From an uncultured virus (IMG/VR IMGVR_UViG_3300025121_000021) (taxonomy: Duplodnaviria; Heunggongvirae; Uroviricota; Caudoviricetes), in the IMG/VR virus record IMGVR_UViG_3300025121_000021: a DNA stretch of 20,000 nt. The stretch is one strand, 5' to 3'. The notes below the pieces were generated by a model. The model saw only the letters and a program-made list of their open reading frames with translations. It had not been told where the DNA came from and searched no databases. A program made the position numbers and the translations under genes. Positions within the stretch are counted from its first letter, which is position 1; each line of letters begins with the position of its first letter. Of this stretch, positions 1-19,869 are shown piece by piece.

Positions 1-47
1 TGGAGGCCGGGATGACCTCCTTGATCACGGTCTTGGAGGCCGGGATG
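1..47. repeat. 33-bp-period direct repeat within the HU-like gene
   Basis: TGGAGGCCGGGATG at 1-14 and 34-47. TTGATCACGGTCTTGG also occurs at 21-36 and 282-297. Confidence 0.85.
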
Positions 48-346
48 TCGATAACCGCGCCGGTCTGGGGATTCCTGCTGCGCCGTCGCATGATCTGGTC
101 TTGGGCCTTAGCCCTCAACCAGATTTCGTTCTCGATATCCTTCCAGGTGTGGCACGCCTTGGTCAACGTTATCATGTGGCCACGGCTGACACTTAACCCG
201 TTGAGAGCCGCAATGGCTCTCTTCACCTTGACCCAACTCCGGACCGAGGCCCGGGTGTCGAACAGGACGTCGCACACTTCGTTGATCACGGTCTTGGTCA
301 GACCGTGATGTTTAAGGGTGTTACTTAAGACTAATTGCTGGTTCAT
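1..346 (-). CDS. Divergent HU/IHF-like DNA-binding protein (3' end runs off window)
   Basis: Hand-translated: GGAGG RBS (351-355) then ATG at 346, open to the window edge. Product: MNQQLVLSNTLKHHGLTKTVINEVCDVLFDT...RRRSRNPQTGAVIDIPASKTVIKEVIPAS. The N-terminus resembles HU helices 1-2 and RNPQTG-x-x-I-x-IPASK matches the HU arm. The GFGTF strand motif is absent. Confidence 0.7.
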   Translation of the reverse strand, partial: MNQQLVLSNTLKHHGLTKTVINEVCDVLFDTRASVRSWVKVKRAIAALNGLSVSRGHMITLTKACHTWKDIENEIWLRAKAQDQIMRRRSRNPQTGAVIDIPASKTVIKEVIPAS

Positions 347-367
347 ATTTCCTCCATAAAGAGGGTT

Positions 368-743
368 GACTTCTGGCCCCGAACCATTAGGTACCCAGAA
401 GTTTGGGCATCTTGTGCCCGCCGGGGTTATGGACTCCCGGCAGCCTCGTGATTCTGGCTCACGTCGCCCTGTTTCGGATTCTCCACCGCTCATCATGAGG
501 GAGAAATCCGCAACCACTCCTCCTTGAGTGGAGATATATGAGACGATTTTTTCTTCGGGGTTCGTCTCAAGCCCCTATTTTTCACCAGGAAGAGGGGGTA
601 AGACCTAAGATGAGTGACTAGACGGTCTCACTCACCCTCCCTTCCCGGTGAAAACGTGGGGTTACTCTCATGCCTCTCCGGTAGCGCCCCAAAACTTCCG
701 GAGAGAGGGGGGTGGGCATCGAACGCCGATGTTTCTCACCCTC
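368..743. other. GC-rich array of about 10 consecutive inverted repeats (candidate structured RNA or DNA element)
   Basis: Stems seen: ACTTCTGG/CCAGAAGT (369-402), GGGCA/TGCCC (405-419), GCCGGG/CCCGGC (420-441), CGTGA/TCACG (447-463), CGGATTCTCC/GGAGAAATCCG (475-510), CCACTC/GAGTGG (514-531), TGAGACGA/TCGTCTCA (539-569), a ~21-bp stem (579-599/634-654), CTCTCCGG/CCGGAGAG (674-705), and GGGTG..CATCG/CGATG..CACCC (710-741). Confidence 0.75.
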
Positions 744-760
744 ATACTTCACTGGGTACT

Positions 761-880
761 CCTTCTAAATTATTTCCAGATTTATTTTCATATAGGAAAA
801 TTACAGATTCTTCCCCTTCTAAATTTATTTCAAACTTTATTTTCCGTAGGAATTTTTCACTCATGGGATCCTTCTCTAAA
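761..880. repeat. AT-rich imperfect direct repeats, 54-55 bp period
   Basis: CCTTCTAAATT at 761 and 815, TTTATTTTC at 781 and 836, TAGGAA at 793 and 847, and a third CCTTCT at 870. Confidence 0.75.
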
Positions 881-971
881 AGCATTCCATCCATGTAATT
901 TGAATCTTGCCTCTCTCTATTTTCATTCATTCCCTACACTTGGGAATATCAAAAAATATTTTTCCTGGGTA

Positions 972-1000
972 TTTACTTTATAAGGGCGATTTAGTATAAT
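972..1000 (+). promoter_or_regulatory. sigma70/sigmaA-type promoter
   Basis: TTTACT (972-977), 17-bp spacer, TATAAT (995-1000), 31 bp upstream of the first + strand gene. Confidence 0.7.
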
Positions 1001-1031
1001 ATTTACAATTGAACAACACTTAAGTAAACAT

Positions 1032-1673
1032 ATGACAACAGAACTTGCGAATTCTACAAATCTTGAAGGGACAATAACTGCTTCAACTTTTACCAATAGT
1101 CCCCTCTGGACAGTATATGAGCATCCTCAGACAACAGCAGCAGAAGGTTATACAATAACTGGAACAACAGAGGACTATTCCCAAACTTATATAACAGGAG
1201 ATCTCGTAATAGCTGCAGGCGACACTAACGCGATGAGCGCAGCAAGAATGCAATATATTTATATTGATGGTACTAATAGTGGAATCGGTGCAGAAAGATA
1301 TCCTTTTATTTATCAAGATGTGAATGGCGTCGAAACAGTTAACCTTAGAAGTTTCAATGCTACAAATTACTTAGCGAGGATGACAGAAAAAGAAACTGAA
1401 GTATTACTTGCCACTATGCCTGCAAAAATGCGTATTGCCTATTTTGAGATTAAGAAACATTTAATCGCTGGAGTATTAGTAGTAGAACGAAAATATACAG
1501 ATCTTCTCTTTGCTTTACTAGGTTTGATTGGGTTTGTTCAAAACTTCAATAATATTGGTTACGAGAAGCAGCACTTGTTTTCTATTGTTACGGGGCTAGT
1601 TACTACCGACGAAACATTTGTGAAAACCTTATATAAAATTGCTTTCAATGAAATAGAAGAGGAAATATTATGA
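1032..1673 (+). CDS. Hypothetical protein (Thr-rich N-terminal half, helical C-terminal half)
   Basis: 213-aa ORF downstream of the promoter, with an ATGA overlap with the next gene. No recognised motif. Confidence 0.7.
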   Translation: MTTELANSTNLEGTITASTFTNSPLWTVYEHPQTTAAEGYTITGTTEDYSQTYITGDLVIAAGDTNAMSAARMQYIYIDGTNSGIGAERYPFIYQDVNGVETVNLRSFNATNYLARMTEKETEVLLATMPAKMRIAYFEIKKHLIAGVLVVERKYTDLLFALLGLIGFVQNFNNIGYEKQHLFSIVTGLVTTDETFVKTLYKIAFNEIEEEIL

Positions 1674-4293: not shown

Positions 4294-5182
4294 GCTCTAT
4301 CAACATGAGCGGGATCAAAGAGACTATTATCCTATTAGAGCAACCGAAAGATTTGGTGCATCTTCGATTGGATATAGTCTTGGAGCTATTCGAGGGCAAT
4401 TAAGTGGTGGTGGTTCTTATGCTAGTGCGTTTTCACGCCAAGGACAAGGTCAACAGGATGAACCTTTGTCTGAAGCCGCCTTAGGAACGACACTCCATAG
4501 GTTTTATGAAGGTTTATTCCTAAAACAAGGTACTGCTCAAAGTGTCGAAGATTTCTCATATTACTATGAAGGTGGGATCGTCGGAACTTCAGACTACCAA
4601 ACTAAAGCAGGTATTTTAGGAGACGTAAAATCTCTTAATGCCGGTAGTATGGAAAATTTGTTTCGGTATGGTCCTTCTAAGTCAGGTATCGCGCAAACAA
4701 ATTATTATGCTGGAAGAATGGGATATCCTAATACGCAGCTTATGTATACTTTGCAAGATAATCCTGCCGTTAGAATTGGCATTAATACTAAGTTCGATCC
4801 AGAACTTTATAAAAAATCTGTAGAGAAAGTACAGAGAGCAAGAGAGCAAGTTGAGACAGAGCAAGACCTATATGGGGTTAAGAAATATAGTCCCGGTAGA
4901 ATGTCAGTCAAACAGTTGACAGAAACTTCTAGAGAAGAAACATATACTGCTCAAGCTAATTTAGAAGATCAGGCGTATCTATATTTTCATCAATTTCAAA
5001 ATACAAGAATGCAAAGACGATTAAAACAATCTGGTATGCAAATATCACAAGAAGAGTTGGTCGCCAGGCAAGTTCAAAGTTGGTATAATGAAGAGATAGG
5101 GAATACAGCAGGGTTACCAATAGCATTATGGGAAAATCGCAACAAATTCCAACCAAATTCTTCTTTTTCTTTAAGCGAGTAA
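4265..5182 (+). CDS. PD-(D/E)XK (RecB/Cas4-like) nuclease-domain protein
   Basis: Motifs in the expected order: ASSIG, GTTLH, E, GTSD, DVKS, QTNYY. No Cys, so no Cas4-type Fe-S cluster. Confidence 0.7.
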   Translation: MLFPQLIQNKLYQHERDQRDYYPIRATERFGASSIGYSLGAIRGQLSGGGSYASAFSRQGQGQQDEPLSEAALGTTLHRFYEGLFLKQGTAQSVEDFSYYYEGGIVGTSDYQTKAGILGDVKSLNAGSMENLFRYGPSKSGIAQTNYYAGRMGYPNTQLMYTLQDNPAVRIGINTKFDPELYKKSVEKVQRAREQVETEQDLYGVKKYSPGRMSVKQLTETSREETYTAQANLEDQAYLYFHQFQNTRMQRRLKQSGMQISQEELVARQVQSWYNEEIGNTAGLPIALWENRNKFQPNSSFSLSE

Positions 5183-5810: not shown

Positions 5811-6808
5811 TGGCTTGGTATAATACAGCTTGGAATGCTGCTCAAGAGATCGCAGTAGGTCCAATAGGCAAAGGTATGGCTATTGGAGCAGGCGTAGGAG
5901 CCGTTGGTGGTGCTACCTACTCCTTAGGTAGCGATAGGACATCATTCCTTGGAGGAGCCTTTAAAGGTGCTTTACTTGGCGCTGGACTAGGGTCTGGTCA
6001 AGCTACTAAAGGTATCATGGGTGGCGCTATTGCTGGTGGTATTTATGGTGGTATCAAAGACAACCAAACTATCCTAGGTGGGGCTGTCATGGGTGGTGCG
6101 ATTGGTGGAGGTATCCATGCTGGAGGCACACACTTAGGTTGGTGGAAAAAAAAGGCCGCTGCTGCTGGTACTCCTGCTGCTGAGTCCTTAGCAAGTAAGA
6201 ACCAACGAGACATTAATCGGGAAATGGGTTCTGAGGTAATGACATCTACACCAGGAGATGTCGACTATAGAGGTTTATTTGATGAAGGCCTGCATGGTTT
6301 TCTTGCTGACAAAAAGCGTCTTGCTGCCGAGCGTGCTGCTGCGGCTGCCGCTCCCGCTCCTTCTGCAGTCGCTTCTCCTGCTCCTGTTATTCCAACTGCT
6401 TCTAGTGTAGCAAATACAATTCAGGCAATTAAAGAAACTTCTACGGGAGTTTGGGGAGTTGCAGAGAGTCAAGAACTTATAGATTCGTCAACAAAGAGAC
6501 TTAAAGATAAATATAGTAGTATGCTCAATAAAACATTACCTCCTGAGTTTGAAACAAGAAAGAATACTATTTTATCTCATATGCAACAGTCATTTTTGCC
6601 GACATATACAGAAGATCAAATAAACAAAGGCGTTGGAGATCTTGAGAGAGATTTATTTGATCTCTTTAAAGATGTAAGTGGGTTGAAAGCTGCCAAAGAA
6701 GCAACTAAAGTGGCTACAAAGTCATTAAAGGAGGGAAATTTAACAAATAGTCCATCTCTTAAAAAACAGCGTAAGAATAAACAACCAAAAAAGAATCAAC
6801 GTAGATGA
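5810..6808 (+). CDS. Glycine-zipper protein with Ala/Pro linker and basic tail
   Basis: Four GxxxG-rich helices in two repeated units (aa ~21-61 and ~67-101), then an AAAAAAPAPSAVASPAP linker and a KKQRKNKQPKKNQRR tail. GGAGG RBS upstream. Confidence 0.7.
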   Translation: MAWYNTAWNAAQEIAVGPIGKGMAIGAGVGAVGGATYSLGSDRTSFLGGAFKGALLGAGLGSGQATKGIMGGAIAGGIYGGIKDNQTILGGAVMGGAIGGGIHAGGTHLGWWKKKAAAAGTPAAESLASKNQRDINREMGSEVMTSTPGDVDYRGLFDEGLHGFLADKKRLAAERAAAAAAPAPSAVASPAPVIPTASSVANTIQAIKETSTGVWGVAESQELIDSSTKRLKDKYSSMLNKTLPPEFETRKNTILSHMQQSFLPTYTEDQINKGVGDLERDLFDLFKDVSGLKAAKEATKVATKSLKEGNLTNSPSLKKQRKNKQPKKNQRR

Positions 6809-8769
6809 AAATAAAAGACGAGTTTCTTCACCCATATTGTAAACAGTGTCGCAAGGAGCGAATAGTTCAAGAAACTGTCGTTCTAGAAGGCAAGGTTATA
6901 CATAAAAAAGGAGACTTTGTTATCGACTGTAGTGGCATACCCAAAGATGGGTATGTACTATTTGACGGAAAAATAATCTCTGAAGACGATTTAAAAAAAG
7001 TTGGACAATTCTCTGAAGACCATATAGATTTAATAAAACAAATTGGCAACCCTGCTCATTGGGCTTACAGAAATATCATTAGACCAGATAAGACTCCTTG
7101 GGAATCACGAGTGGCTCAAAAAGGAACTGCTTGTGCTGGACTTAAATATCAAGAGATGATGCTCCGTTGTAATGCTAATCGTATAGTGTGTAGACTAGGG
7201 CGGCGCAGTGGAAAAACGGATGTCCTTGCAATTAAAGCACTTTTTTATGCTTTCACCAATTCTCCCCGAGCAAGGAGAAAAGATAAGAGCAATGAATGGG
7301 CAAGAGGCTTAAGCGAAATAATGGTTTTGTGTCCATACAAAACGCAGGTAGATGAAGTTTTCAAACGAATCCGAGAATTTATAGAAAATAGTTCTACTTT
7401 AATGAATTCTATTGCAAGAGATGTCAAAACTCCAATTCAAGAAATTGTATTTAGTAATGGATCTCGTATTAAAGGATTCTCTGCCGGATCTAATAGTAAT
7501 TCTGGTGCGGCATCTTCTCGTGGTCAAGACGTCCATTTCCTTATTATGGACGAAATGGATTATTTAAACCAAGAAGACGTAGATGCTATTAACCCTGTAT
7601 TAGGTACTGTTAAAGATGGTTGTCTACTAGGAAGTTCAACTCCCTCGGGCGCGCGTGGGATTCTTTATAACAAATCTAATGATCCTACTTATAAAGAGTT
7701 TCATTTTCCTTCTCATGTTAGCGATACATGGACGCCACAATTAGATCAAGAACATAGAGTTCAATTAACAGAGAGCGCATATCAGAGAGAAATATTGGCA
7801 CTTTTTGGAGAATTAGAAGCTGGTGTTTTTCAGCCTAAATATATTGAAAGCGCTCAGGCTCCGTATAATTATGCGACTTGTGTCCCTAATAGAAATCTTT
7901 TCTACTTTATTGGTGGAGATTGGAACGACGAAAAAAATGGTTCTACTTTCACAGTTGTAGAATTTAATCCTTTTACTGCAAGTGCTAGAAAAGTACACGA
8001 ATCTATCATCAGTAAAAAAGACTGGAACCAGTCTGCAGCAGTAAATGAAGTCATTAGGCTAAATACTTTCTGGAAACCAGAGTTTATATACTTAGACGAA
8101 GGTTATGGAGCCTACCAAATAGAAATATTAAAAACTGTTGGTATTGCGGCCTCTAACAATCCAGAACAACACAATTTACAAACCGCACGTTTAAAAGACA
8201 TTATTAAAGCTTATAATTTTTCATCTACTATTGATGTCATAGATCCTTTAACAACAGAAAAGATTAAAAAGCGCGCCAAACCGTTTCTTATTGAAAATAT
8301 AGTCCGTTTTTTTGAACAACAAAAATGTTTGATTTCAGATATCGATACAACTCTCATTAAACAAATGGGAAATTATATCATTAAACACGTATCATCTACG
8401 GGACAACCTATTTATGCTTGTAGAGATGCCAACATAGGCGACCATAGTCTTGACTCTCTAGCCTTGGCTCTAGTTGGGATTACTCTTGAGAATAGTGACC
8501 TTTTGAATATTAGAGTTACGGATACGATGCAATACATGGAAGATCATAATCTATATAAAGACAGAGAAGCAACTGGTCAAGGACGCCCAGTAAAAGATGA
8601 TATTTATAGTCGGCAATCTATAACAAATCAACCTAAAGAAAAACGGATTATTAATCATCCAGACGATTTTACAAAAGCTTCTGATGAAAAAGATGAACAT
8701 GGCAATTTTATTCAGTCATATATTGTAAAAAAACGCAATCAACCTAAGACACGTAGAACTAATTGCTAA
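6805..8769 (+). CDS. terL: Terminase large subunit
   Basis: Q motif (KYQ), Walker A GRRSGKT, RGQD, Walker B FLIMDE, coupling motif SSTP-x-G, and RNase H-like nuclease residues IGGDW, YLDEG and DHSLDS. Confidence 0.95.
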   Translation: MKIKDEFLHPYCKQCRKERIVQETVVLEGKVIHKKGDFVIDCSGIPKDGYVLFDGKIISEDDLKKVGQFSEDHIDLIKQIGNPAHWAYRNIIRPDKTPWESRVAQKGTACAGLKYQEMMLRCNANRIVCRLGRRSGKTDVLAIKALFYAFTNSPRARRKDKSNEWARGLSEIMVLCPYKTQVDEVFKRIREFIENSSTLMNSIARDVKTPIQEIVFSNGSRIKGFSAGSNSNSGAASSRGQDVHFLIMDEMDYLNQEDVDAINPVLGTVKDGCLLGSSTPSGARGILYNKSNDPTYKEFHFPSHVSDTWTPQLDQEHRVQLTESAYQREILALFGELEAGVFQPKYIESAQAPYNYATCVPNRNLFYFIGGDWNDEKNGSTFTVVEFNPFTASARKVHESIISKKDWNQSAAVNEVIRLNTFWKPEFIYLDEGYGAYQIEILKTVGIAASNNPEQHNLQTARLKDIIKAYNFSSTIDVIDPLTTEKIKKRAKPFLIENIVRFFEQQKCLISDIDTTLIKQMGNYIIKHVSSTGQPIYACRDANIGDHSLDSLALALVGITLENSDLLNIRVTDTMQYMEDHNLYKDREATGQGRPVKDDIYSRQSITNQPKEKRIINHPDDFTKASDEKDEHGNFIQSYIVKKRNQPKTRRTNC

Positions 8770-10236: not shown

Positions 10237-12125
10237 TTTCTCCTGCTTTATTAGAGATTCGCGCGCACGCGGAAAAAATCATAATAGAATACGAAGAGTT
10301 TATTCGATCTAAAGTGACAACTAGTCAAGATGCTATAAGTGTAGCTCTTTACCGAAAAACTAAAGATGCCCGCCATCTCACGTCTTTCCAAAATGATGTA
10401 GTTAAATTCTTGCGTGACCCCAATAATCCTTCTGCCTCTTTAAGTCTGTCTCCTGAAATACAAGCACAAGCCAAAGATAAAGCAACTGGAATATTAGATG
10501 TTGCTAAAGATAAAGTTAATAAAGAAATTGAAAAACTTCAAGATGCAGTTAAATCTAATTTAACCCCTGATATTGATCTTCCTGGTCAAGATACATGGGA
10601 TAAAATCATGGACTATGCAAAAGATAGAGGGAACAGTTTAAAGTGGGACAATATTAAAGAGAACTGTATTCCTTGTCTAGACCGCGATTGGGCCTTGTTC
10701 AAAGAACTTGGAGATTGGAAAAAACTAGGAAAAGATCTAGTCAAAGCAATGTTGGCTCCGTTCTTAAAATGGTATGAAGACATGAAGGCAATGATCCAGA
10801 AATTAAAGTCATTGCTAAATAATGATTTTTGGAAATTTAATATCTGTCGTTTATTGGAATTATTAAAAGACCTTTTTATGGGGCATTTTAATTGTATTCC
10901 AGATTTTATGGCGATTTTAGCCGCCTTATCTTTTCTTATGTTTCAATTGGCAAATAGCCTAAACATAGGAATGGCTTCATTAGGAATGGCGTTACTCTCT
11001 ACTTTGCTTGCTCCTTTATTCTTCAAAATATCTGCTTGGCTAAAATCTATTCTAGATAAATTAACTGCTCCCCTCGAATGCATTATCAATTCTATCGACC
11101 TCCAACTCTCTAAACTGCCAGAATTTAAACTTAAGTCTTTAGATGTAATGTTTAAAGGGACTCCAGAAACAGCTTCGAGAGAAGCTGAAGTAATTACGGC
11201 CGGTAGTGTAACTATGGCTCAACGTACAAGTGCTGATGGACAAATACGAAGAGCAGAACAAGATATGAGAGAGAAGCAAGCTAGGGATTTAGCTGAAAAA
11301 GCTAAAAATAATCCTGCTCCTCCAGAACCTAAAGAGGATTATTCAAACTGGGAAAAGAAAAGTGAAGCGGCATTTCACCAAAAATTGATTGACCGGATCA
11401 ATATGCCACAAAGAGCGGAAAACCTAACTCAAACAAATAAAGCCGCGACCCAAAGAATGGTAGATGACTGGGCAGTATTAAGTGAAACATCTATGGATAA
11501 TGTTGCTTCCATATTATGGGTAGTCCGAGACGCAATTAAAACTTCCAAAGAATCAATCGTAACTTACGTGGCAAGTCTAGAAAGAATGTTGGCCGATATC
11601 CAATCTTCTCTTAAATCTCAGTTAGAAGAAGATTATAAAATTCTAACAACTATCCAAAGAATTATTAGTCTCATTACCCTTCTTAAGACCCTCAAGGAAA
11701 TATGGGACAAAGGACTAAAATTTTGTGATAAAGATAAATCAGATATTAGCAATGAAGAGATCGCCAATGAATTAGTAAAAAAGGGATATTTTATAGAAGG
11801 AGGAACTAGCAACAGAAATAATCCTATTTCAGTAGAAGAACTTTATAGTCCAGAATCTAAAATCAATTGGACTCCTATTGATAATTCTTCTTCTCCTGAG
11901 GAATTTTCTCCTCCCACTGAAGAAGAAATAAGAGACGGATTGGCCACCGATGGTCAGATAGATTTAACAACAGGATTAAAATTAAAAGTTGTGACTAATC
12001 CTTCAGGATTTAGTTCTTATCAGTTAGTCGTTAATCCAAAGACTTTTAAATGTACCGGCTCTCTAAGTAAATCTGAGTTTGCCGAGTTGAGACAAATGAT
12101 GAGTGAATTACAAGGTGTAAAATGA
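10233..12125 (+). CDS. Large helical hypothetical protein with hydrophobic segment and Cys pairs
   Basis: 630 aa containing CIPC, NIC and NCIPD, a long uncharged stretch 'FMAILAALSFLMFQLANSLNIGMASLGMALLSTLLAPLFF', and coiled-coil-like regions. ATGA overlaps at both ends. Confidence 0.7.
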   Translation: MISPALLEIRAHAEKIIIEYEEFIRSKVTTSQDAISVALYRKTKDARHLTSFQNDVVKFLRDPNNPSASLSLSPEIQAQAKDKATGILDVAKDKVNKEIEKLQDAVKSNLTPDIDLPGQDTWDKIMDYAKDRGNSLKWDNIKENCIPCLDRDWALFKELGDWKKLGKDLVKAMLAPFLKWYEDMKAMIQKLKSLLNNDFWKFNICRLLELLKDLFMGHFNCIPDFMAILAALSFLMFQLANSLNIGMASLGMALLSTLLAPLFFKISAWLKSILDKLTAPLECIINSIDLQLSKLPEFKLKSLDVMFKGTPETASREAEVITAGSVTMAQRTSADGQIRRAEQDMREKQARDLAEKAKNNPAPPEPKEDYSNWEKKSEAAFHQKLIDRINMPQRAENLTQTNKAATQRMVDDWAVLSETSMDNVASILWVVRDAIKTSKESIVTYVASLERMLADIQSSLKSQLEEDYKILTTIQRIISLITLLKTLKEIWDKGLKFCDKDKSDISNEEIANELVKKGYFIEGGTSNRNNPISVEELYSPESKINWTPIDNSSSPEEFSPPTEEEIRDGLATDGQIDLTTGLKLKVVTNPSGFSSYQLVVNPKTFKCTGSLSKSEFAELRQMMSELQGVK

Positions 12126-14140
12126 TAGAGCCTATTACCAAGTTATATTTAAACAAGTATTCTCTGTTAGATGCGCCTGCTGCTGTTTATACTGTAAGGA
12201 CTATTGCTGACCTCAAACCTGAACGTAAAAAGGTTGAAGGATTTATTGAAAATTCTGATATGTTCAGAAGTCCAGAATATAATTTTGCAGAAAATGGAAA
12301 GGCCGCAGATGTTGAAAGTCTAGTTAAACGATCTATAGAACTTAAACATACCTTGATGTTTAAGGAAGGGTATGTATTAGTCGGTTCAAATGCAGATCGA
12401 GTCGATTATATTAGAGAGCGTTTTCGTCAGTTGGGTGTTGCTCAACAACAACCAATGGACTTATTAATTCGAGAATTAGCGCGCTCTTTTTTCAGAAATA
12501 GTAACGCTTTTGCATTAAAAGTTCGTAACGCAAAAAATTCTGGTGGCAAAGTCAGAAAAGCTAATGGAAAAGATATTCAACCGATTTCTGCTCTTTTCGA
12601 AATTCCTTCTGAAACAATTTGTTATAAGAAGAAGAATAATCAAGTAGTAGCCTGGGGTCAAGACCCTCGGACATTAGATGGTTCTGATCAAGTATTATGG
12701 TCTACTTATACAGTCAGCAATAGAGACTCAGGTGTATGGGGTCCAGGTGACGTTCTACATTTCTATAGAAGTCGCAAAGCAGGGTTTGTTCTTGGAACTC
12801 CTGATTTAGTCCCTATCCTTGACGATATTCGTGCTCTCAGGCGTATAGAACAAAATGTTGAATTATTAATTTATCAACACATTTATCCTTTATATCATTA
12901 TCGGATTGGTACCGATGGAATGCCAGCGCGAGAAAATAAAGGAACAGATGGATATGATGAAATTGAGCGCGCAAAAGTTAAGATAGAAGATATTCCACCT
13001 GAAGGAATGTTTATTACCTCTCATCGACATGAAATAAGAGCTATTGGAGCAGAAGGAAAAGCGTTAGAAGTCCAAGAATACTTACAGTATTTCCTTAAGC
13101 GCGTAATTATAGGGTTAGGAATATCTGAGGTAGACCTCGGTCTTGGAGATTCGGCAAATAGATCTACAGCGGAAAATATTTCTAAGAATTTAGTTGACCT
13201 TGTAAAAGGTGTCCAGCGTGAATTCGAGATATTCATGAATGAGAATTTTATCTACGAGCTTCTATTGGAAGGTGGGTTCTCTGATCCTCTTTCAAAAGAT
13301 AATATAGTGCATTTTCGTTTTAATGAAATCGATATAGACAAAAAGATTAAATTAGAAAATCACGAAATGACACTTTATCAAGGCGGTTTGACAACTCAGG
13401 ACGAAGCACGAGTGCAATTAGGTAGAGATGTATTGAATGAAAGACAGCAAAAAGAAACATTCGTTTATTTAGTCGAGATTCCTAAATTAAAGGTAAAACT
13501 AGAAACAAATGTAAATAAGACAGAAGGTGCAAGCAAAATGGCAACTTCTAGAGCAAAGCCTAGAAATCAACATACAGATTTTATGGATAGTGCCACAGAT
13601 TCAGTAATATCAGAGTTAGTAAAAGAACTTAAAGATATGTCAAATTATTCATCTTCTAAAGATTGGAAGAGAATAATTATTGAAATGGCTGCCAGCAATT
13701 TAGCTGATATTTATCATGAGAATGTCTTGCTGACATTCAAAAATAACCTTAGACATCATGATCTAAAAAAATCAGAAGTTCAATCTATGATAGGTATTGC
13801 GCAAAAAGAGATGGATAAAATCGTCTTGAGTTCTTTAGAATATTTCGCGACTAAATTGAGAAAAAAATTAGAAACAAATACTTTAATAGATTCTATTGAT
13901 AGTCTTGATTATATGATTAAATTCCTTAATAATACTGTTCCTGCACAAACAAAAAATTATATAGTAGTCTTAGATCAGAGATTATTAGGTAAAGATTATG
14001 TTAAAATAGTAGCTTCGGATGGATGTCAAACTTGTCTAGATTATAAAGACAAGTTATTATATATAAAGAATGGGGTTAGTGTAACCGACATCCCTCCATG
14101 GCATTTTAATTGTAAATGTGAAATTACACCAGTAGGTTAA
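12122..14140 (+). CDS. Portal protein with C-terminal MuF/SPP1 gp7-like domain
   Basis: Positioned before the protease. Portal-like segments include NAFALKVR, DVLHF...GTPDL, 'IIGLGISEVDLG..DSANRSTA', 'FRFNEID' and 'GLTTQDEAR.QLG'. The C-terminal CQTC...PPWHFNCKC matches the Mu F motif. Confidence 0.85.
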   Translation: MIEPITKLYLNKYSLLDAPAAVYTVRTIADLKPERKKVEGFIENSDMFRSPEYNFAENGKAADVESLVKRSIELKHTLMFKEGYVLVGSNADRVDYIRERFRQLGVAQQQPMDLLIRELARSFFRNSNAFALKVRNAKNSGGKVRKANGKDIQPISALFEIPSETICYKKKNNQVVAWGQDPRTLDGSDQVLWSTYTVSNRDSGVWGPGDVLHFYRSRKAGFVLGTPDLVPILDDIRALRRIEQNVELLIYQHIYPLYHYRIGTDGMPARENKGTDGYDEIERAKVKIEDIPPEGMFITSHRHEIRAIGAEGKALEVQEYLQYFLKRVIIGLGISEVDLGLGDSANRSTAENISKNLVDLVKGVQREFEIFMNENFIYELLLEGGFSDPLSKDNIVHFRFNEIDIDKKIKLENHEMTLYQGGLTTQDEARVQLGRDVLNERQQKETFVYLVEIPKLKVKLETNVNKTEGASKMATSRAKPRNQHTDFMDSATDSVISELVKELKDMSNYSSSKDWKRIIIEMAASNLADIYHENVLLTFKNNLRHHDLKKSEVQSMIGIAQKEMDKIVLSSLEYFATKLRKKLETNTLIDSIDSLDYMIKFLNNTVPAQTKNYIVVLDQRLLGKDYVKIVASDGCQTCLDYKDKLLYIKNGVSVTDIPPWHFNCKCEITPVG

Positions 14141-14141
14141 A

Positions 14142-16391
14142 ATGGAAAAATATTTAGAGCTTTTTGATAGGGTGCTTTTAAAACCTATCTCTAATTTAGA
14201 ACCGCATAAACGATTCTTCTTTGAAACTAAAGATGCCACCTCTGAAACCGGCCACTCATTGATCGTTGAAATGGCAGCTACGTTTGCCGGGGTGGTAACT
14301 TGGCATAATGCTTTATATCTGCCAAGTAGAATGCGCAATTCTGTTTATACAATGCTCCCTAATGCAAAAAGAGATTATTGTATTCCTATCCTAGTTGGAC
14401 ATGACGATTCTAAAGATCCAATTGGAAGAATCATATCTGCTGAATATATAGATACGACTAAAGGGTTAGGTATTACAGATTCAGTTATAGAAGCAATTAA
14501 TTATGGATCTCTCAGTGGAAAATCCTTACAAAAAGCCGTTAATCATTTTAGTAAAAATTATCTGACACAAGACAATTGGCGTGGAATGGGCTTTATTTTA
14601 GTCAAAGCCAAGATCACCGATCCCGATGCCATCCGAAAAATACTAGATGAACGTTATTTGCCAGTCTCTTCTTCACAAAGGACTAACCAAGCTATTTGTT
14701 CTATTTGCTTTCAAGATTGGTTGGACGAAGACGGAATTTGTGAACACAAGCCCGGATCGGTTTATGATGGTAAAAAAGCCTTCTTAATTGCTGGTGATTT
14801 TTTCTACAATGAAATATCTTGCGTAAATCAAGGAGCCAATCCATTCGCTAAAATTATTGGCGTCTCTAAAGATGAAATGCTGGTTGATTCTGTTAAAGAA
14901 ACACCAATGCTTGAATATTCCTTTAAAGCTTTCCGCCAAAAAGGTAGTGATTTATTAGAATTGAATGATAGTCTTATATTAGGAGATAAACAGGAGGATT
15001 TGATGAACTTACAAGACAAAGTGCGCTCTCTCTATATAACCTTATACGGAGAAGATTATTCTTCTATCTCTGCTAATATAGAGAAGCCCGAAGATAAAGA
15101 TCCGGGTGCAATATTGCAGGCTTTAATTAAGTTATTAGAAGTTGAAATGTCATCGATGGAAGAAAAAGATTTCTTAAAACTTCCTGAAGATAAGATGACT
15201 GAATTACTGAAGACAACCGTAGAAAAAATGACAACTCCTAAAGCTGAAGTAAAAGATGAAACTCCTAAGCTTTTAGTTGATGGAGAAAATGCCACCCAAA
15301 TTATAGAGGATGTTTTAGCTGAATTTTATCCCACCAAAGACGAAGAAAAAGAATGTAAAGAATATTTAAATGCCCTTCCTCAAAAAGATGGAGTCGAAAT
15401 TGCAGATCTTATTCTTACTTCGATAGAAGACTTTTTTATAAAGAAATATGGCGAAACTGATATTATGGACTTGACAGATCCAGAAAAAGGTTGGGATGTC
15501 TTTAAAAAAGAACTGATTCAGGCAGGATTATTCGATAGTTTAAAAGACAAGGATCTATATTCTGAAGACGCAAAGTTATCAGCCGAACAACGTAAGAAGT
15601 TGAATTCAAAGAGCTTCTGTGGTCCCAATAGAAGTTTCCCATGCTCTGACTGTCAGCATATCGTTGCGGCCAGACGTCTAATTGGGAGATATAAAGGTCC
15701 TGGCTCTAAAGAAGCAATTTTAGCCTGTGTTAATAGAAAAGCCAAACAAATGGGTTGTGATAAGAGTGAAGATAAGGTTATAATTCCGAAAGAAGAAACC
15801 AAACAGGATACTATGCCAATTTTAACCCAGGAACAGAAAATGATTCTGATTGACTCCCTCAAGACCGAAGGTTTAATTAAAGCAAATGAACCCTGTCAGG
15901 AATGTTTAACTTTACAACAACATATAAAAGTGTTAAATTATTTACATGATAGCCTCGGAATGGAACTAGAAGAATTAAACAAAGAAAACAAGACCCTCCT
16001 TGTTGATTCGTTAATTCAACTAAAGGCTATTGCAGAAGGTCCTGAATCGGTAAAAGATCAGGTGGAACTTATGAAAACTTTTGAAGAACGTACAATGGAA
16101 TCCTTAAAAGACAGTATTAACGATTTGAGAAAAAAGGTTTCTGTTAATGAAATTCAGAAAAAGCTGAACCAAGAAACTCCTCCTGAAATTAAACCCGAAG
16201 ATTCTCCTATTAAAGATACTGTTCCCTCAGTACCTAAAGTAGAAGATAAACAGGAAATAAAAGACGACGGTGATAGTGAAGCACAGGAAGCGTTAAAGAA
16301 ATATAAGCGCTTACAGAAGACCAATTCTATCAAAGCAGATAGGTTCCATCAGCTAATGGTAGAAAAGGGTATTTTTAAATCAAAAAACTAA
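14142..16391 (+). CDS. Prohead protease fused to scaffold-like region
   Basis: PILVGHD..DPIGRI (His), 'KILDERYLPVSSS' (Ser), a CSIC...CEH insertion and EISCVNQGANPFAKI, all typical of herpes/HK97-type prohead proteases. A long acidic coiled-coil C-terminus follows. Confidence 0.85.
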   Translation: MEKYLELFDRVLLKPISNLEPHKRFFFETKDATSETGHSLIVEMAATFAGVVTWHNALYLPSRMRNSVYTMLPNAKRDYCIPILVGHDDSKDPIGRIISAEYIDTTKGLGITDSVIEAINYGSLSGKSLQKAVNHFSKNYLTQDNWRGMGFILVKAKITDPDAIRKILDERYLPVSSSQRTNQAICSICFQDWLDEDGICEHKPGSVYDGKKAFLIAGDFFYNEISCVNQGANPFAKIIGVSKDEMLVDSVKETPMLEYSFKAFRQKGSDLLELNDSLILGDKQEDLMNLQDKVRSLYITLYGEDYSSISANIEKPEDKDPGAILQALIKLLEVEMSSMEEKDFLKLPEDKMTELLKTTVEKMTTPKAEVKDETPKLLVDGENATQIIEDVLAEFYPTKDEEKECKEYLNALPQKDGVEIADLILTSIEDFFIKKYGETDIMDLTDPEKGWDVFKKELIQAGLFDSLKDKDLYSEDAKLSAEQRKKLNSKSFCGPNRSFPCSDCQHIVAARRLIGRYKGPGSKEAILACVNRKAKQMGCDKSEDKVIIPKEETKQDTMPILTQEQKMILIDSLKTEGLIKANEPCQECLTLQQHIKVLNYLHDSLGMELEELNKENKTLLVDSLIQLKAIAEGPESVKDQVELMKTFEERTMESLKDSINDLRKKVSVNEIQKKLNQETPPEIKPEDSPIKDTVPSVPKVEDKQEIKDDGDSEAQEALKKYKRLQKTNSIKADRFHQLMVEKGIFKSKN
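15003..16391 (+). CDS. Putative nested in-frame scaffold protein (462 aa)
   Basis: AGGAGG at 14992-14997, 5 nt before an in-frame ATG (Met288) placed just after the protease domain. Confidence 0.6.
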   Translation: MNLQDKVRSLYITLYGEDYSSISANIEKPEDKDPGAILQALIKLLEVEMSSMEEKDFLKLPEDKMTELLKTTVEKMTTPKAEVKDETPKLLVDGENATQIIEDVLAEFYPTKDEEKECKEYLNALPQKDGVEIADLILTSIEDFFIKKYGETDIMDLTDPEKGWDVFKKELIQAGLFDSLKDKDLYSEDAKLSAEQRKKLNSKSFCGPNRSFPCSDCQHIVAARRLIGRYKGPGSKEAILACVNRKAKQMGCDKSEDKVIIPKEETKQDTMPILTQEQKMILIDSLKTEGLIKANEPCQECLTLQQHIKVLNYLHDSLGMELEELNKENKTLLVDSLIQLKAIAEGPESVKDQVELMKTFEERTMESLKDSINDLRKKVSVNEIQKKLNQETPPEIKPEDSPIKDTVPSVPKVEDKQEIKDDGDSEAQEALKKYKRLQKTNSIKADRFHQLMVEKGIFKSKN

Positions 16392-16404: not shown

Positions 16405-17910
16405 ATGACTATTCAACGCCAATATTCTGGCATGATTAATAGTGCCAATGGTTATAATACCTATTCAGCTCGCTTTAAAGGGTGGAGAGAAACTACTCCT
16501 ATCACTCCTAATATTGAGTTGAATGAAGGTATTCGTCCAGATTCTTTCGTGCCCGCTCCTTACCTTAAAGTCGTTCGTTATGACGACTATACTAGGAGTT
16601 GGGTTGTAATTGGAGCCGGTAAACCGGTTTGTACAGATTCTAACAGTTTCTTAGTTCCCGCAGGTCTTCGTCGTCAAGCTCAAATGCTTTTAGATATGAG
16701 TATTGCTGGCTTGACTTTCAGCGGTGGCGCTCTCACTGGTAATACTCTCGATTTCTCGGTTGATTATGCGGGCGCAACTCTAGACCGTTATGGTGCTGAT
16801 GATACTACTACTGGAATGTTAAACTCTCGTGGGGTTGTCGTTACTACCAATGAACCGGTCATTTATTCATTGTTTACTGCAGCTGCTTACTCGGCAACAC
16901 CATTAGACATTCATGCTATTGCTAATCCGTTCTCTTCGTGCCTTGGTATCGTACCTTACGATGTTAAGCAAGCCGCAGGTAGGACTAGCTCATATAATTC
17001 TTACAATCCTGCTACTTATCAATACCATAACTTAATTGAGCAAACTGCTGCTGTAGTTCTCTGTGATTACGTGATTCAACTTCCAGTTGAACCTTATAAC
17101 CGTGCTCAGGCTTCATTCTGTGCATTACCCGCAGCTACTAGTGATGCTGATGTCACTTTAGATATTAGTGCTATTGGTGCTGTAGATGTCTCTATCAGCG
17201 GTTCTTTGACTGGTTATACTACTACTATTCAGTCTAGTTTTGTTGTCACCAAGAACGGAGTCCGTTTACAAGATAAGGGGTCTGCTTTAGTCGCCGGAGA
17301 CGAAGATATTTATTACTATTGGACTGACGCTTCTCCTGACAAAGTTTTCTTCCTCGGAAACGCTGCTGATACCTTCTTGGTCGATTTCATTTATCAAGTA
17401 AGTGCTACCTATAGTCAACCATATGCTGGCCTTACTACTTTCCGTGGGACTCCTACTGTCGGTGGAATGGTCACTTATGATACTACTGGCAACTTTATTA
17501 TGGATCCAGATTGGAGTTTTACAGCCGCCACTGATCTCGTATATGACGGTCATCATGGTTTTGTCACGGCAACAAGTGCATTAGATGCCGGTATAGTAAG
17601 TGGAGCTTCTTTAGAAGAGTCTCTTGGAGCTGACTTTGTTCTGTTTGGAAATAGACTCAAAGCTAAATCAGCGGAAGTTTTAGGTCAGATTCTTCGCTAT
17701 GACGTAGACTTCCCCAAAGATTATCTTGATCGTGTTCGTACCGCTTTCGATCCTAATGTTAATGGTGTCGTAATTGATCCGTCAACTGGGGCCGAACGTA
17801 CTGTTGATCGTATGCCCGGTAGTGCAACTGGTGGTCTACCTGCTAACGTGTATTTAGCTGGTGGCGATGCCGATACCGGAGTCGTTCATATTAACCTCAT
17901 AACCCGCTAA
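16405..17910 (+). CDS. Virion structural protein, probable capsid decoration/cement
   Basis: Lies between the protease and MCP, with an AGGAG RBS. Rich in Gly/Ala/Thr/Ser/Val and poor in Lys, with a beta-rich pattern. Confidence 0.6.
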   Translation: MTIQRQYSGMINSANGYNTYSARFKGWRETTPITPNIELNEGIRPDSFVPAPYLKVVRYDDYTRSWVVIGAGKPVCTDSNSFLVPAGLRRQAQMLLDMSIAGLTFSGGALTGNTLDFSVDYAGATLDRYGADDTTTGMLNSRGVVVTTNEPVIYSLFTAAAYSATPLDIHAIANPFSSCLGIVPYDVKQAAGRTSSYNSYNPATYQYHNLIEQTAAVVLCDYVIQLPVEPYNRAQASFCALPAATSDADVTLDISAIGAVDVSISGSLTGYTTTIQSSFVVTKNGVRLQDKGSALVAGDEDIYYYWTDASPDKVFFLGNAADTFLVDFIYQVSATYSQPYAGLTTFRGTPTVGGMVTYDTTGNFIMDPDWSFTAATDLVYDGHHGFVTATSALDAGIVSGASLEESLGADFVLFGNRLKAKSAEVLGQILRYDVDFPKDYLDRVRTAFDPNVNGVVIDPSTGAERTVDRMPGSATGGLPANVYLAGGDADTGVVHINLITR

Positions 17911-17922
17911 TAGGAGGAGTAA

Positions 17923-19269
17923 ATGGATAAGAGTTTTAAAGTAACTATTAGCGACAAAGTAGCCGTATATTCTGATGACAAAGTTCTACAGAATTTAGCG
18001 CGCAAAGAAACCAAAGGCGAAAACGGTAAATTAGTTGCTAAAGATGCTAACAAAGTTTATGAAGATCGCGTTGAATGGTGTTCACACCTATTCAGGAATG
18101 ATGGTCTTTCTCCCGAAGGGGAATATGTTCCTATCACCGACGCTTTAAATGCTCAAGATGCTTCAATCGTTTTCCCGAAAACTATTGTAAATCTTGCTCG
18201 TGAAGCTCAGGAACCCCTTTTAATTGGTACTGCTCTTCTTGACCGTATCCAATGGAAACCAGGTATGCAGGTATTTTTACCTAATGCTATTGGTGCTCTT
18301 GGCGGCGTAAAGAGAATGGCAGACATGGAAGAATATCCAGAAGTCAGCCTCCAGATGGGTGGCGGAACTGTATTTGATAGTATTGGGAAATTCGGCTTAG
18401 CTGTTAAATTCTCCGATGAAATGCTTCGTTATTCGCAGTACGATATTATTGCTATGCATATCCGTGCTGTGGGTCGTGCCTTCGCTCGCGCGAAAGAATC
18501 AAATATTTTTGCCATGATTTCGAGTCTGGGTGAAACGGTATTCGATAATGCCACTCCAGCTAGTTCAGTATTTGGTATCACTACTGGCCGTGGCCTTACT
18601 GGCTCAGCCAATGGTTCTTTAACTGTTGATGACTTATTTGACGCTTATACTCATTTAGTCAGCAAAGGTTATAGTCCCGATACTTTACTTATGCATCCTC
18701 TTACTTGGAACATGTTTATGCGTGATCCTATTATGCGTATGATGATGCTAAATTCAGGTGGCGGAACTTATTTCGCTACTTATAATGGTTCCTTCTCAAA
18801 TACTAATCCTTGGGGCAGCCAACCTGCTAATGGTATTGGTATGGGTCGCGGAACTATGATTAATCCTAATTATAGTGAAGTCGAGAATTACAGTCAGAAC
18901 CTAACCAGTGCTCCTGTTCTTCCTTCTTACTTCCCGTTCCCGTTGCGCATTGTTGTTTCTCCGTTTGTAACTCATGATCCTATCCGTGATCTCACTGAGA
19001 TTTATCTCTTTGAGTCAGGAGAATTAGGTGTCATTCTTCAAGACGAAGAACTCACTAGCCAACAGTGGGAAGATCCTGCTCGTGATATTCAAAAGATTAA
19101 ATTCCGTGAAAGATATAATCTTATGATTAAAAATGAGGGTCAGGCTGTCGCTACTTTTGCCAACATCAAAGTTATTGCTAACCAGGTAGTTCTACCTGCT
19201 CAGGCTCAGATTGAAGTTGGTTCGGGTGCTTCAATTGACGAACTTGATCTCCGTACTGCTGTGGTATAA
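17923..19269 (+). CDS. Major capsid protein (HK97 fold)
   Basis: AGGAGG RBS. E-loop/backbone helix pattern 'EEYPE...KFGLAVKFSDEMLRYSQYDIIAMHIRAVGRAFARAKE', plus 'PDTLLMHP', 'IVVSPFV' and 'IKFRERY'. Followed by a terminator. Confidence 0.92.
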   Translation: MDKSFKVTISDKVAVYSDDKVLQNLARKETKGENGKLVAKDANKVYEDRVEWCSHLFRNDGLSPEGEYVPITDALNAQDASIVFPKTIVNLAREAQEPLLIGTALLDRIQWKPGMQVFLPNAIGALGGVKRMADMEEYPEVSLQMGGGTVFDSIGKFGLAVKFSDEMLRYSQYDIIAMHIRAVGRAFARAKESNIFAMISSLGETVFDNATPASSVFGITTGRGLTGSANGSLTVDDLFDAYTHLVSKGYSPDTLLMHPLTWNMFMRDPIMRMMMLNSGGGTYFATYNGSFSNTNPWGSQPANGIGMGRGTMINPNYSEVENYSQNLTSAPVLPSYFPFPLRIVVSPFVTHDPIRDLTEIYLFESGELGVILQDEELTSQQWEDPARDIQKIKFRERYNLMIKNEGQAVATFANIKVIANQVVLPAQAQIEVGSGASIDELDLRTAVV

Positions 19270-19341: not shown

Positions 19342-19869
19342 ATGAATCGAATTCTCATTTGTTTGAAAGAGCCTCCTTTGTGGGCTCCAAGACCAGTGTA
19401 CGATAAATCTTGGTCTGATCTAGCAAAAAAATGTTTATTAACAATGTCTAATCCGGGTCCCATTGAATTAGATTTAGATGATATTCCCGCTGAATTACTT
19501 AGACAGGTACAACAGGGTTTAAAAGAAGGTGTCTTAACCTCTGATACGGAAATCGCAAAAGTTTTAGAAAGTGATTTGCAAAAAATTAAGAAGCAAAAAC
19601 AAAATATGTTTCTTACTGCAGAGCATAAAGCAAAAGCAGAAGAATTAATAAATAATTCATTAGGTAAATTAAAGAGGCTTATCCGAGATTTAGTAGATAA
19701 TGACGAACTTATGGTTTTGCGTTGCATGTTAGATCTTGAACGTAAAAATCGCGCGCGCAAGACTGTCGTTTCCTTACTTATGAAAGCAATTAAAGATTCT
19801 ATATCTTTTATAGAAATAAATGATAATACCGGTACTTATATGTTGAGTCAAACAATAGATTTTGAATAA
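19342..19869 (+). CDS. Hypothetical protein downstream of MCP
   Basis: 175 aa with a GGGGG RBS. The C-terminal 'LERKNRARKTVVSLL' helix-hairpin pattern is one I recall from small phage head-associated proteins. Confidence 0.7.
   Translation: MNRILICLKEPPLWAPRPVYDKSWSDLAKKCLLTMSNPGPIELDLDDIPAELLRQVQQGLKEGVLTSDTEIAKVLESDLQKIKKQKQNMFLTAEHKAKAEELINNSLGKLKRLIRDLVDNDELMVLRCMLDLERKNRARKTVVSLLMKAIKDSISFIEINDNTGTYMLSQTIDFE

Follow-up and report, generated by a model that had tools for sequence, protein, structure and literature searches.

The 20,000-nucleotide (nt) stretch of DNA analyzed here (the window) comes from the uncultured phage record IMGVR_UViG_3300025121_000021 and is the reverse complement of positions C1:1-20000 of that record, whose contig C1 spans 125,446 bp at an estimated completeness of 59%. 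On its minus strand, positions 1..346 of the window hold the first 115 codons of a giant gene whose protein opens with a rearranged form of the bacterial DNA-binding protein HU, containing fragments of three genes of one bacterial genome. The start codon, read directly from the sequence, is the ATG at window 346-344 (minus strand), with a Shine-Dalgarno sequence GGAGG at 355-351 and a 4-nt spacer between them, in keeping with an earlier note, made from the sequence alone, that had seen here a minus-strand open reading frame (ORF) with a strong ribosome-binding site. That note described a small in-window protein; the ORF is, however, open at window position 1 and runs past the window edge. Followed leftwards, as the note had proposed, it continues in the phage record to C1:29437, giving a full ORF of 9,783 nt and 3,260 amino acids (aa) from the ATG (C1:19655-29437, plus strand), or 3,317 aa from an alternative upstream GTG. 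Codons 1-444 contain no stops in the ORF frame, against 24 and 12 when read in the two remaining forward frames; the guanine-plus-cytosine (GC) fractions at their three codon positions (GC1/2/3) are 0.51/0.43/0.79. The note had found the ORF missing from its ORF track; such an absence would be explained by the default of ORF lists, which drop open-ended ORFs. Throughout, aa numbers count codons from the window ATG, and L002 denotes a local coordinate frame that includes the gene start.

Phage-encoded HU homologues are known, for example TF1 of SPO1, and profile searches together with fold matches support an HU-like head on this protein. With the Pfam family Bac_DNA_binding (PF00216), the 115 in-window residues scored 22.0 bits (E 2e-4, aa 87-107), just below the cut-off of 22.4, while the whole protein reached 42.8 bits against that cut-off (E 6e-11, aa 166-198). 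Profile-profile alignment (hhalign) to a reference alignment of 18 HU sequences gave a probability of 96.5% (E 8.7e-10, 77 columns) for aa 1-115, with aa 1-31 falling on HU helices 1-2, aa 87-107 on the HU arm and about 30 extra residues between them, and a probability of 99% (E 8e-18) for aa 116-225. Thus the HU helices and the arm that the earlier note had read in the window both reappear, and the comparison with HU/IHF profiles that it had named as decisive found similarity by hidden Markov model as well as by profile-profile alignment. Its replaced core is likewise present, in that aa 32-87 lack the GFGTF strands and have no detectable relative. What it had taken for a tail fared differently, as just past the window lies a second, better HU core and arm (aa 160-197), in which the invariant and near-invariant HU columns are all kept within aa 171-190 (R180, R183, R186, N187, P188 and T190 among the kept residues). 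The arm motif RNPQTG occurs at aa 91-96 and at aa 186-191; the proline of the HU arm is the residue that intercalates in solved HU/IHF-DNA complexes. There is no contiguous HU unit of about 90 residues, since a 128-residue insert separates helix 2 from strand 1, and the ASKTVGFKPAPKFKNAI end of the host HU is replaced in the phage head, with the usual last strand and C-terminal helix gone.

Structure prediction gave a similarly divided picture. An AlphaFold2 (AF2) model of aa 1-225, made with the HU alignment, had a mean predicted local distance difference test (pLDDT) score of 73.3 and a predicted template modelling (pTM) score of 0.31, with helices at aa 2-13, 18-29, 35-49 and 55-85, a hairpin at 88-101, a long helix at 119-164 and strands within 166-206. 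The top 10 rows of a Foldseek search of the PDB were all HU/IHF entries or complexes (probability 0.97-1.00 over roughly 50-90 aligned columns), at E values of only 2e-3 to 1.2e-2. As modelled, then, the local HU elements are supported and their overall arrangement is not. A complex prediction pairing aa 1-225 with the first of two host HU proteins described below (HU no. 1) returned a score of 0.01 (mark 0.32), which we count neither for nor against binding. Searching aa 1-445 among 1.84 billion representatives recovered only the protein itself and 37 small HU proteins, and aa 32-84 were covered by no match in that set.

The source of the head pieces was found by a species-genome scan, through a normal 92-aa HU gene, in G001, the metagenome-assembled genome (MAG) Deltaproteobacteria bacterium RIFOXYA12_FULL_61_11. 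A DNA search of L002:1-8000 in this genome yielded four strong matches (E 5e-38 to 5e-19), and these revealed a patchwork. The host HU no. 1 gene, which reads MTKAELINNLTDTLKHRDLTKTVINEVCDVLFDT..., supplies the helix 1-2 piece (aa 9-31; window 253..321, minus strand, L002:680-748), which is 93% identical over 69 nt to G001:C247:28942-29010 with its last 49 nt matching at 49/49, and, beyond the window, the core and arm piece (aa 160-197; L002:1147-1244), 96% identical (94/98) to the same contig. A second host HU gene (HU no. 2, donor locus G001:C237:6747-6806) supplies the arm tip and descending strand RNPQTGAVIDIPASKTV (aa 90-107; window 26..85, minus strand, L002:916-975) at 95% identity over 60 nt and 98% over 53 nt. 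A piece of atpG, codons 17-36 encoding the first helix of the ATP synthase gamma subunit (aa 129-148; L002:1039-1098, beyond the window), is 98% identical (59/60) to G001:C119. The first part of the insert (aa 32-87; window 86..252, minus strand) is predicted to be helical, with the AF2 helices at aa 35-49 and 55-85, and has an in-frame GC3 of 0.77; window 86..252 had no DNA match in G001, and a protein search with aa 32-89 gave a best E of 0.64. The earlier note's word "chimeric" therefore holds in a stronger sense than it was given, as the head combines pieces of two HU paralogues and of atpG, all three from a single bacterial genome.

The junctions can still be read. A single break divides host HU no. 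1 (...GAC ACC / CTC GCC AAG G...), whose two sides are both kept in the phage, and the in-frame insert between them measures 384 nt, or 128 codons (aa 32-159); the split copy (aa 9-31 plus aa 160-197) carries a 9-nt deletion. A description as two tandem HU copies was dropped in favor of one split copy, since there is only one break in the host gene and no sequence is missing at the edges of the insert. The HU no. 2 piece ends in an 11-nt microhomology, CCAAGACCGTG, also present in helix 2 of HU no. 1 and with the codon phase unchanged; after it the phage continues as HU no. 1 for about 12 nt, and then the IPASK of HU no. 2 recurs. At the next junction AAGATCAC is common to atpG, followed by 31 unassigned bases and then the 60-nt atpG piece. 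All host pieces are read in their donors' own frame, and the ungapped alignments show sharp edges. The re-used KTVI(N/K)EV and the restarted IPAS that the earlier note had picked out are both true DNA repeats and arise because of these junctions between donors: the KTVIKEV copy (window 15..36, minus strand) spans 22 nt at 91% identity to window 276-297 (KTVINEV, in helix 2 of HU no. 1), and the IPASK direct repeat is 17 nt long at 100% identity (minus strand, window 47-31, then 14 to beyond 1; L002:954-970 and 987-1003; 33 nt from start to start). The short microhomologies that join the pieces point, on sequence grounds, to template switching or illegitimate recombination.

Among 40 relatives of G001 searched as a control, 9 matched at E <= 0.001 (10/41 genomes counting G001), all at 71-91% identity and nearly all at HU or atpG loci. 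The 125-kb record, compared with G001 in seven stretches, showed nothing further that matched at 93% identity or more over 55 nt or longer, and tblastn of aa 200-1855 against G001 gave nothing significant. When contigs were aligned to the region at 90% identity, one foreign contig joined L002:~719-748 to 1147-1244 with 23 other letters and then ran on as an ordinary HU gene. Other foreign contigs overlapped L002:1039/1060-1098 and continued outward into what is the beginning of a gene for ATP synthase gamma. Compared with the HU/IHF family, the head has the same helices 1-2, GFGTW strand and RNPQTG arm with its proline, the closest actual sequence being the HU gene on G001:C247, but it differs in being one unit split by a 128-residue insert that holds an extra partial arm and an AtpG helix, in having its last strand and C-terminal helix replaced, in its fusion to about 3,000 more residues and in being a recent copy of a host gene rather than an old phage lineage. 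Engineered single-chain IHF (PDB 2iie and 2iif), which was among the sequence and fold matches, also carries two HU/IHF arm elements per chain, but it is designed, whereas the phage protein is a natural, rearranged single unit plus fragments and not two full units. A limited literature search turned up no earlier account of a phage gene whose 5' end had been put together out of more than one host gene, and we make no claim that none has been published. The locus offers a base-by-base, dated example of a phage building a protein module from host genes, one captured whole and then interrupted by templated pieces of two others.

A patchwork of this kind could in principle be an assembly chimera of phage and host reads, and some features invite that suspicion: GC content shifts abruptly at window ~730, exact words of up to 49 nt are common to both genomes, and two host contigs break off within about 70-120 nt of their shared pieces. 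These are G001:C119 and C237, and such ends are expected if the shared words broke the host assembly. We give this explanation next to no credence. The 90% cluster of the protein contains 8 members from several sources on contigs of up to 190 kb, the shorter members being later start calls or fragments of the same sequence. Locus L004 (IMGVR_UViG_3300025117_000028, 190,284 bp) matches at 100% identity through a 7,335-nt span that includes the GC shift, and the two metagenome loci L042 and L043 are identical over 4,735 nt. Searching sequencing runs with a 1.5-kb stretch listed 16 runs; 13 of them contained half or more of the words sampled, the listing drew on 9 coded studies, and 8 rows were flagged as a possible source. 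Four unflagged runs were compared, while X15 and X16, with a small share of the words, were left aside. A single 11,257-nt contig of X11 spans L002:1-11117, a contig of X9 spans L002:31-8889 and one of X12 spans L002:547-4631, while the fragmentary X13 has a 350-nt contig over L002:719-1068, each with 0 differences; the runs may belong to one sampling campaign and so represent separate libraries made from a single phage population, not separate populations. Separately assembled contigs thus bridge the region without differences, with the assemblies of three samples not flagged as source agreeing across all junctions, which argues that the region is not the assembly chimera that the earlier note had named as its possible undoing. 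Furthermore, run X13 also contains a contig of the host gene, from which the phage pieces differ (places 1203 and 1208), the sequence that links the pieces is unique and does not occur in the host MAG, and the tetrapeptide SEGH, described below, recurs in GC-rich and AT-rich parts of the ORF alike. Variant N-termini were sought in viral and metagenome scans, and only 100%-identical copies were found.

The donor genome is tied to the phage by a second, independent line. The clustered regularly interspaced short palindromic repeats (CRISPR) array on G001:C217 (L037:2023-6861) holds 67 repeats of 37 nt and 66 spacers, 3/66 of which match the phage in clustered matches of 31-35 nt, with protospacers at C1:29340-29373 (33/34, within the 3'-terminal part of the giant gene), C1:29959-29989 (94-96%) and C1:38056-38090 (35/35). 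Given these three spacers, the donor lineage has met the phage, and by this sequence evidence the G001 lineage is likely its host. Large phages of low GC content (33%) on GC-rich hosts are not unusual. Captured genes and CRISPR spacers together thus connect an uncultured 190-kb phage of 33% GC to a MAG labelled as 61% GC. Separately, contigs of X12 and X13 match the giant gene outside the window at L002:~4836-4871 and ~7433-7465 and then continue into different, repeat-like sequence (...CCCTTCCAAATCAGGGAAC...); these matches look like spacers in the CRISPR array of another organism.

Beyond its head, the giant protein is a series of modules. Bac_DNA_binding (aa 166-198, E 6e-11) is followed by DUF1653 (aa 513-571, E 1e-16 on the module alone) and, in module 7 (aa 2004-2457), by PolyA_pol (PF01743, aa 2030-2156, 72.5 bits), PolyA_pol_RNAbd (PF12627, 24.2 bits) and HD (PF01966, aa 2261-2342, 29.9 bits) in the order of a CCA-adding enzyme, with PHROG 2244 (tRNA nucleotidyltransferase) matching aa 2027-2438 at E 2e-60 over profile positions 4-383 of 392. 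A weak PcfJ-like match lies at aa 2850-2903 (E 0.002), and HExxH motifs occur at aa 381 (HEIGH) and aa 3036 (HEVGHHLD). For the C-terminal HExxH module, an AF2 model of aa 2947-3175 without alignment was unusable (pLDDT 38.8), the best protein-atlas scores (0.87, below the 0.9 line, and 0.82 for LPD23) are leads only, and a word-index search with aa 2947-3175 found no homologue. Searches with phmmer against the PDB returned nothing for aa 2947-3260 and only rows with E >= 0.68 for aa 226-445, and a whole-protein homologue search returned only the protein itself and P0002, a second giant protein (3,779 aa) with a CCA-adding domain at 32% identity. In P0002 the motif G[FWHY][IVT]P[NG]F occurs 9 times in the first 1,620 residues and brackets the CCA-adding domain, and regular inter-module motifs may therefore be a wider feature of such giant proteins.

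The tetrapeptide SEGH marks the boundaries between these modules. It occurs eight times (aa 443, 504, 620, 1255, 1854, 2000, 2458 and 2945), whereas 2,000 shuffles contained it 0.026 times on average and never more than once; the remaining 332 ORFs of the record that reach 60 aa all lack it, and every EGH of the giant protein belongs to an SEGH. Its codons vary across the eight sites (TCC/TCG/AGT, GAG/GAA, GGA/GGG/GGT and CAC/CAT), which argues that the repeat is kept at the protein level. SEGH motifs bracket DUF1653 and the CCA-adding enzyme, and modules 4-5 yielded one free-standing relative only, P0047 (596 aa), whose alignment covers aa 1646-1845 and ends 9 residues before SEGH-1854. Judged by its sequence, the protein has a polyprotein anatomy with marked module junctions, and the SEGH motifs are probably cleavage sites. 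GC3 falls steadily along modules 1-9 (0.79, 0.69, 0.69, 0.67, 0.55, 0.51, 0.42, 0.38 and 0.38); the host HU gene has a GC3 of 0.88, and the phage background is about 33% GC. The gradient fits, as consistency rather than proof, additions at the 5' end followed by drift to phage composition.

We compared this architecture with the polyvalent proteins surveyed by Iyer, Burroughs, Anand, de Souza and Aravind (2017, PMC5512222). In that survey, nucleic-acid-binding domains form the largest non-catalytic group within polyvalent proteins, with ArdC-N, which binds DNA, the most frequent single one, and zincin domains are predicted to process the proteins. DNA-binding domains at the N-terminus of polyvalent proteins are proposed to act as DNA tethers. 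The giant protein resembles these in being a giant phage polypeptide of unrelated modules (HU-like, DUF1653, CCA-adding, weakly PcfJ-like), on a record that also carries terminase, portal and capsid genes; in having its nucleic-acid-binding domain at the N-terminus; in its HExxH motifs, one with an Asp three residues on, as the survey describes for a phage-type MPTase; and in lying beside head genes. The survey also predicts processing of such proteins into units. It differs in that HU or HU-like, histone-like, DUF1653, PcfJ and CCA-adding have 0 occurrences in the main text of the survey, and no regular inter-module motif like SEGH appears in the portions of it that were covered. Of the hallmark domains (ArdC-N, MPTase, LPD families) none reached significance in Pfam, and domains such as ArdC-N or the LPD families gave no match at E <= 0.1 for the whole protein or at E <= 1 for the modules after aa 199. 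On its sequence the giant protein is polyvalent by architectural definition and not by hallmark domains.

Prohead proteases form a second point of comparison, among them T4 gp21 and phiKZ gp175. The giant-phage prohead protease SPN3US gp245 cuts head and ejection proteins after A-X-E (PMC10052503). Such substrates are similar in that the Glu of SEGH would be P1, 4/8 SEGH sites read A-S-E, and many cuts are made per substrate. They differ in that S-E-G-H is conserved here through P1' and P2' with a free P3 (A, C, K, N, Y), and in that SEGH sites lie between folded modules, not in N-terminal propeptides, with the motif in no other ORF.

Bringing these lines together, we favor, at a probability of roughly 0.55, the reading that window 1-346 is the 5' end of a 9.8-kb gene of an approximately 190-kb phage, and that this gene encodes a host-derived DNA-binding head on a polyvalent-type polyprotein that is cut at SEGH. 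Cutting after the Glu of SEGH would most likely yield nine separate products, one of them a CCA-adding enzyme, and the cutter could be a head protease of the giant-phage type or, alternatively, one of the two HExxH regions. Module 1 would then comprise aa 1-442 and be headed by the HU-like part made of host DNA, a captured copy of host HU no. 1 (aa 9-31 and 160-197) interrupted once by the 128-codon composite insert with its HU no. 2 arm piece (aa 90-107) and AtpG N-terminal helix (aa 129-148), the pieces having perhaps been captured by template switching at microhomologies. By analogy, the head may bind double-stranded DNA without sequence specificity and so tether module 1, or the uncut precursor, an idea that parallels the nucleic-acid-binding domains of polyvalent proteins (PMC5512222). 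Delivery together with the phage DNA is conceivable, its sole support being the position of the giant gene beside the head gene block. The eight SEGH marks amount to a testable prediction for the cutting of a polyvalent-type giant protein, where the 2017 survey had processing as a prediction.

Several observations weigh against this reading. Cleavage, DNA binding and packaging are all deduced from sequence alone; the HU fold is split by 128 residues and lacks its usual last strand and helix, and AF2 gives no confident overall arrangement for it (pTM 0.31). The HExxH regions are only sub-threshold for peptidases (best E 0.13-0.16; PHROG 87, E 0.004), none of the polyvalent hallmark domains is significant in Pfam, and, SEGH being absent from other ORFs, a head protease that cuts at SEGH would face capsid proteins without the same mark. 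The in-frame state of the pieces is explicable without function, because the AAG-ACC-GTG microhomology shares its codon phase in both HU donors and because any insert must leave 3,000 downstream codons readable. All available copies are identical, and they therefore offer no variation from which selection on the head could be read.

In the main rival account, which we consider unlikely and yet take seriously, the head is an evolutionary scar, a recent and neutral by-product of illegitimate recombination at the gene's 5' end that was tolerated as it is in frame, with an N-terminus that is perhaps trimmed and with no DNA-binding role. The very high identity to the host (49/49, 59/60 and 94/98) leaves little time for selection, error-prone template switching typically leaves microhomology junctions with short local duplications, the disrupted HU fold has lost its C-terminal elements, and the search among 1.84 billion representatives found the arrangement in no relatives. 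A mere scar sits less well with the way in which HU no. 1 was divided, by one break that cost it no sequence next to the insert, and with the place of the split between helix 2 and strand 1, where HU has a turn. The invariant HU core and arm residues are moreover all kept, and the start codon and ribosome-binding site stand directly upstream, so that the head is made in every molecule.

Other proposals turn on the likeness to the host itself. The earlier note had offered a free-standing small HU mimic, or a small packaging or nucleoid accessory protein, and neither is supported as stated, the 115 residues being the N-terminus of a 3,260-aa multi-domain protein; its dominant-negative idea is conceivable, as the head carries the host HU dimer helices nearly unchanged. 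In an adapted form, module 1, freed at SEGH-443, would pair with host HU through these dimer helices and either poison the nucleoid protein or bring the HExxH region to it. In comparison with host HU no. 1, helix 2 shows 16 identical residues in a row and the core and arm 33/38 identities, the donor is the CRISPR-linked host, and the borrowed AtpG helix would suit a theme of host-subunit mimicry; yet a recent neutral capture predicts the same identity, and no pathway is common to AtpG and HU. The adapted mimic is improbable in our view. It is very improbable that the host-identical stretches matter as nucleic acid, for instance as targets that would lead to self-targeting CRISPR spacers or as homology to host loci. 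Spacers derived from this phage are indeed taken up by the host lineage, including one against the giant gene itself, and the pieces do derive from host HU genes and atpG, but they total only about 290 nt, all are sense and in frame within an ORF, and the limited literature search found no precedent.

A broader extension of the favored reading, in which the host-derived head serves a polyprotein cut at SEGH, would make the 5' end of the gene a capture site, where abundant host messages (HU, ATP synthase gamma) are copied in sense and stitched in frame by template switching, perhaps by a phage reverse transcriptase, where new N-terminal modules drift from host-like to phage-like, and where the borrowed HU and AtpG surfaces act as subunit decoys after release at SEGH. 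We regard this as a long shot. The phage does encode a reverse transcriptase (261 aa, C1:67970-68755, L039:1444-2229; RVT_1 at 55.3 bits versus a cut-off of 29.6), which makes RNA-templated capture conceivable, and nothing ties the enzyme to the head locus. The reverse transcriptase gene is preceded by palindromic DNA (C1:67715-67967) and a 245-aa ORF with a GAGGTGS nucleotide-binding motif.

Upstream of the start codon, the giant gene has a GC-rich 5' leader (window 347..731, minus strand; 385 nt, 55% GC) in which codon periodicity is absent (GC1/2/3 0.58/0.57/0.50). The RNA of window 347-760 (minus strand) is predicted to fold at -177 kcal/mol (z = -5.7, with 0/100 shuffles as stable) into a string of strong hairpins. 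Rfam searches at gathering score over the window and at E <= 1 over positions 1-1100 gave only one sub-threshold hairpin, which scores on both strands as a plant microRNA precursor (27 bits versus an 80-bit cut-off), and a DNA search of the leader against G001 found nothing significant. A sigma-70 scan of window 300-1100 gave no promoter on the strand of the giant gene, its counts being at chance level. On the plus strand, a promoter-like TTTACT-17-TATAAT at window 972-1000 precedes the divergent block that starts at 1032, again at a count expected by chance for the region. This block, which the giant gene adjoins, is the head gene block, with the large terminase at window 6805-8766, the portal at 12122-14137 and the major capsid protein at 17923-19266, while most other ORFs of the window are without assignment (any PHROG match in 5/19 and any Pfam match in 3/19), among them two that separate the portal and capsid genes (window 14142-16388 and 16405-17907).

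Elsewhere in the record, six tRNA-like genes (Lys, His, Leu, Ile and two with odd anticodon loops) lie at L032:6109-12271 (C1:33109-39271), and the protospacer at C1:38056-38090 falls inside their span. At L032:17019-19772 (C1:44019-46772), three small ORFs (17019-17327, 17726-18166 and 19452-19772) share a ...CVRP-type C-terminal domain that has homologues in the host MAG at 73-84% nt identity, and the second of them (17726-18166) has a GC-rich, host-like part that is seemingly read out of frame. Finally, a dispersed repeat family of about 200-360 nt and 75-86% identity occurs at C1:70770-71130 and at 54052, 75159, 76352, 84483, 85288 and 89403.

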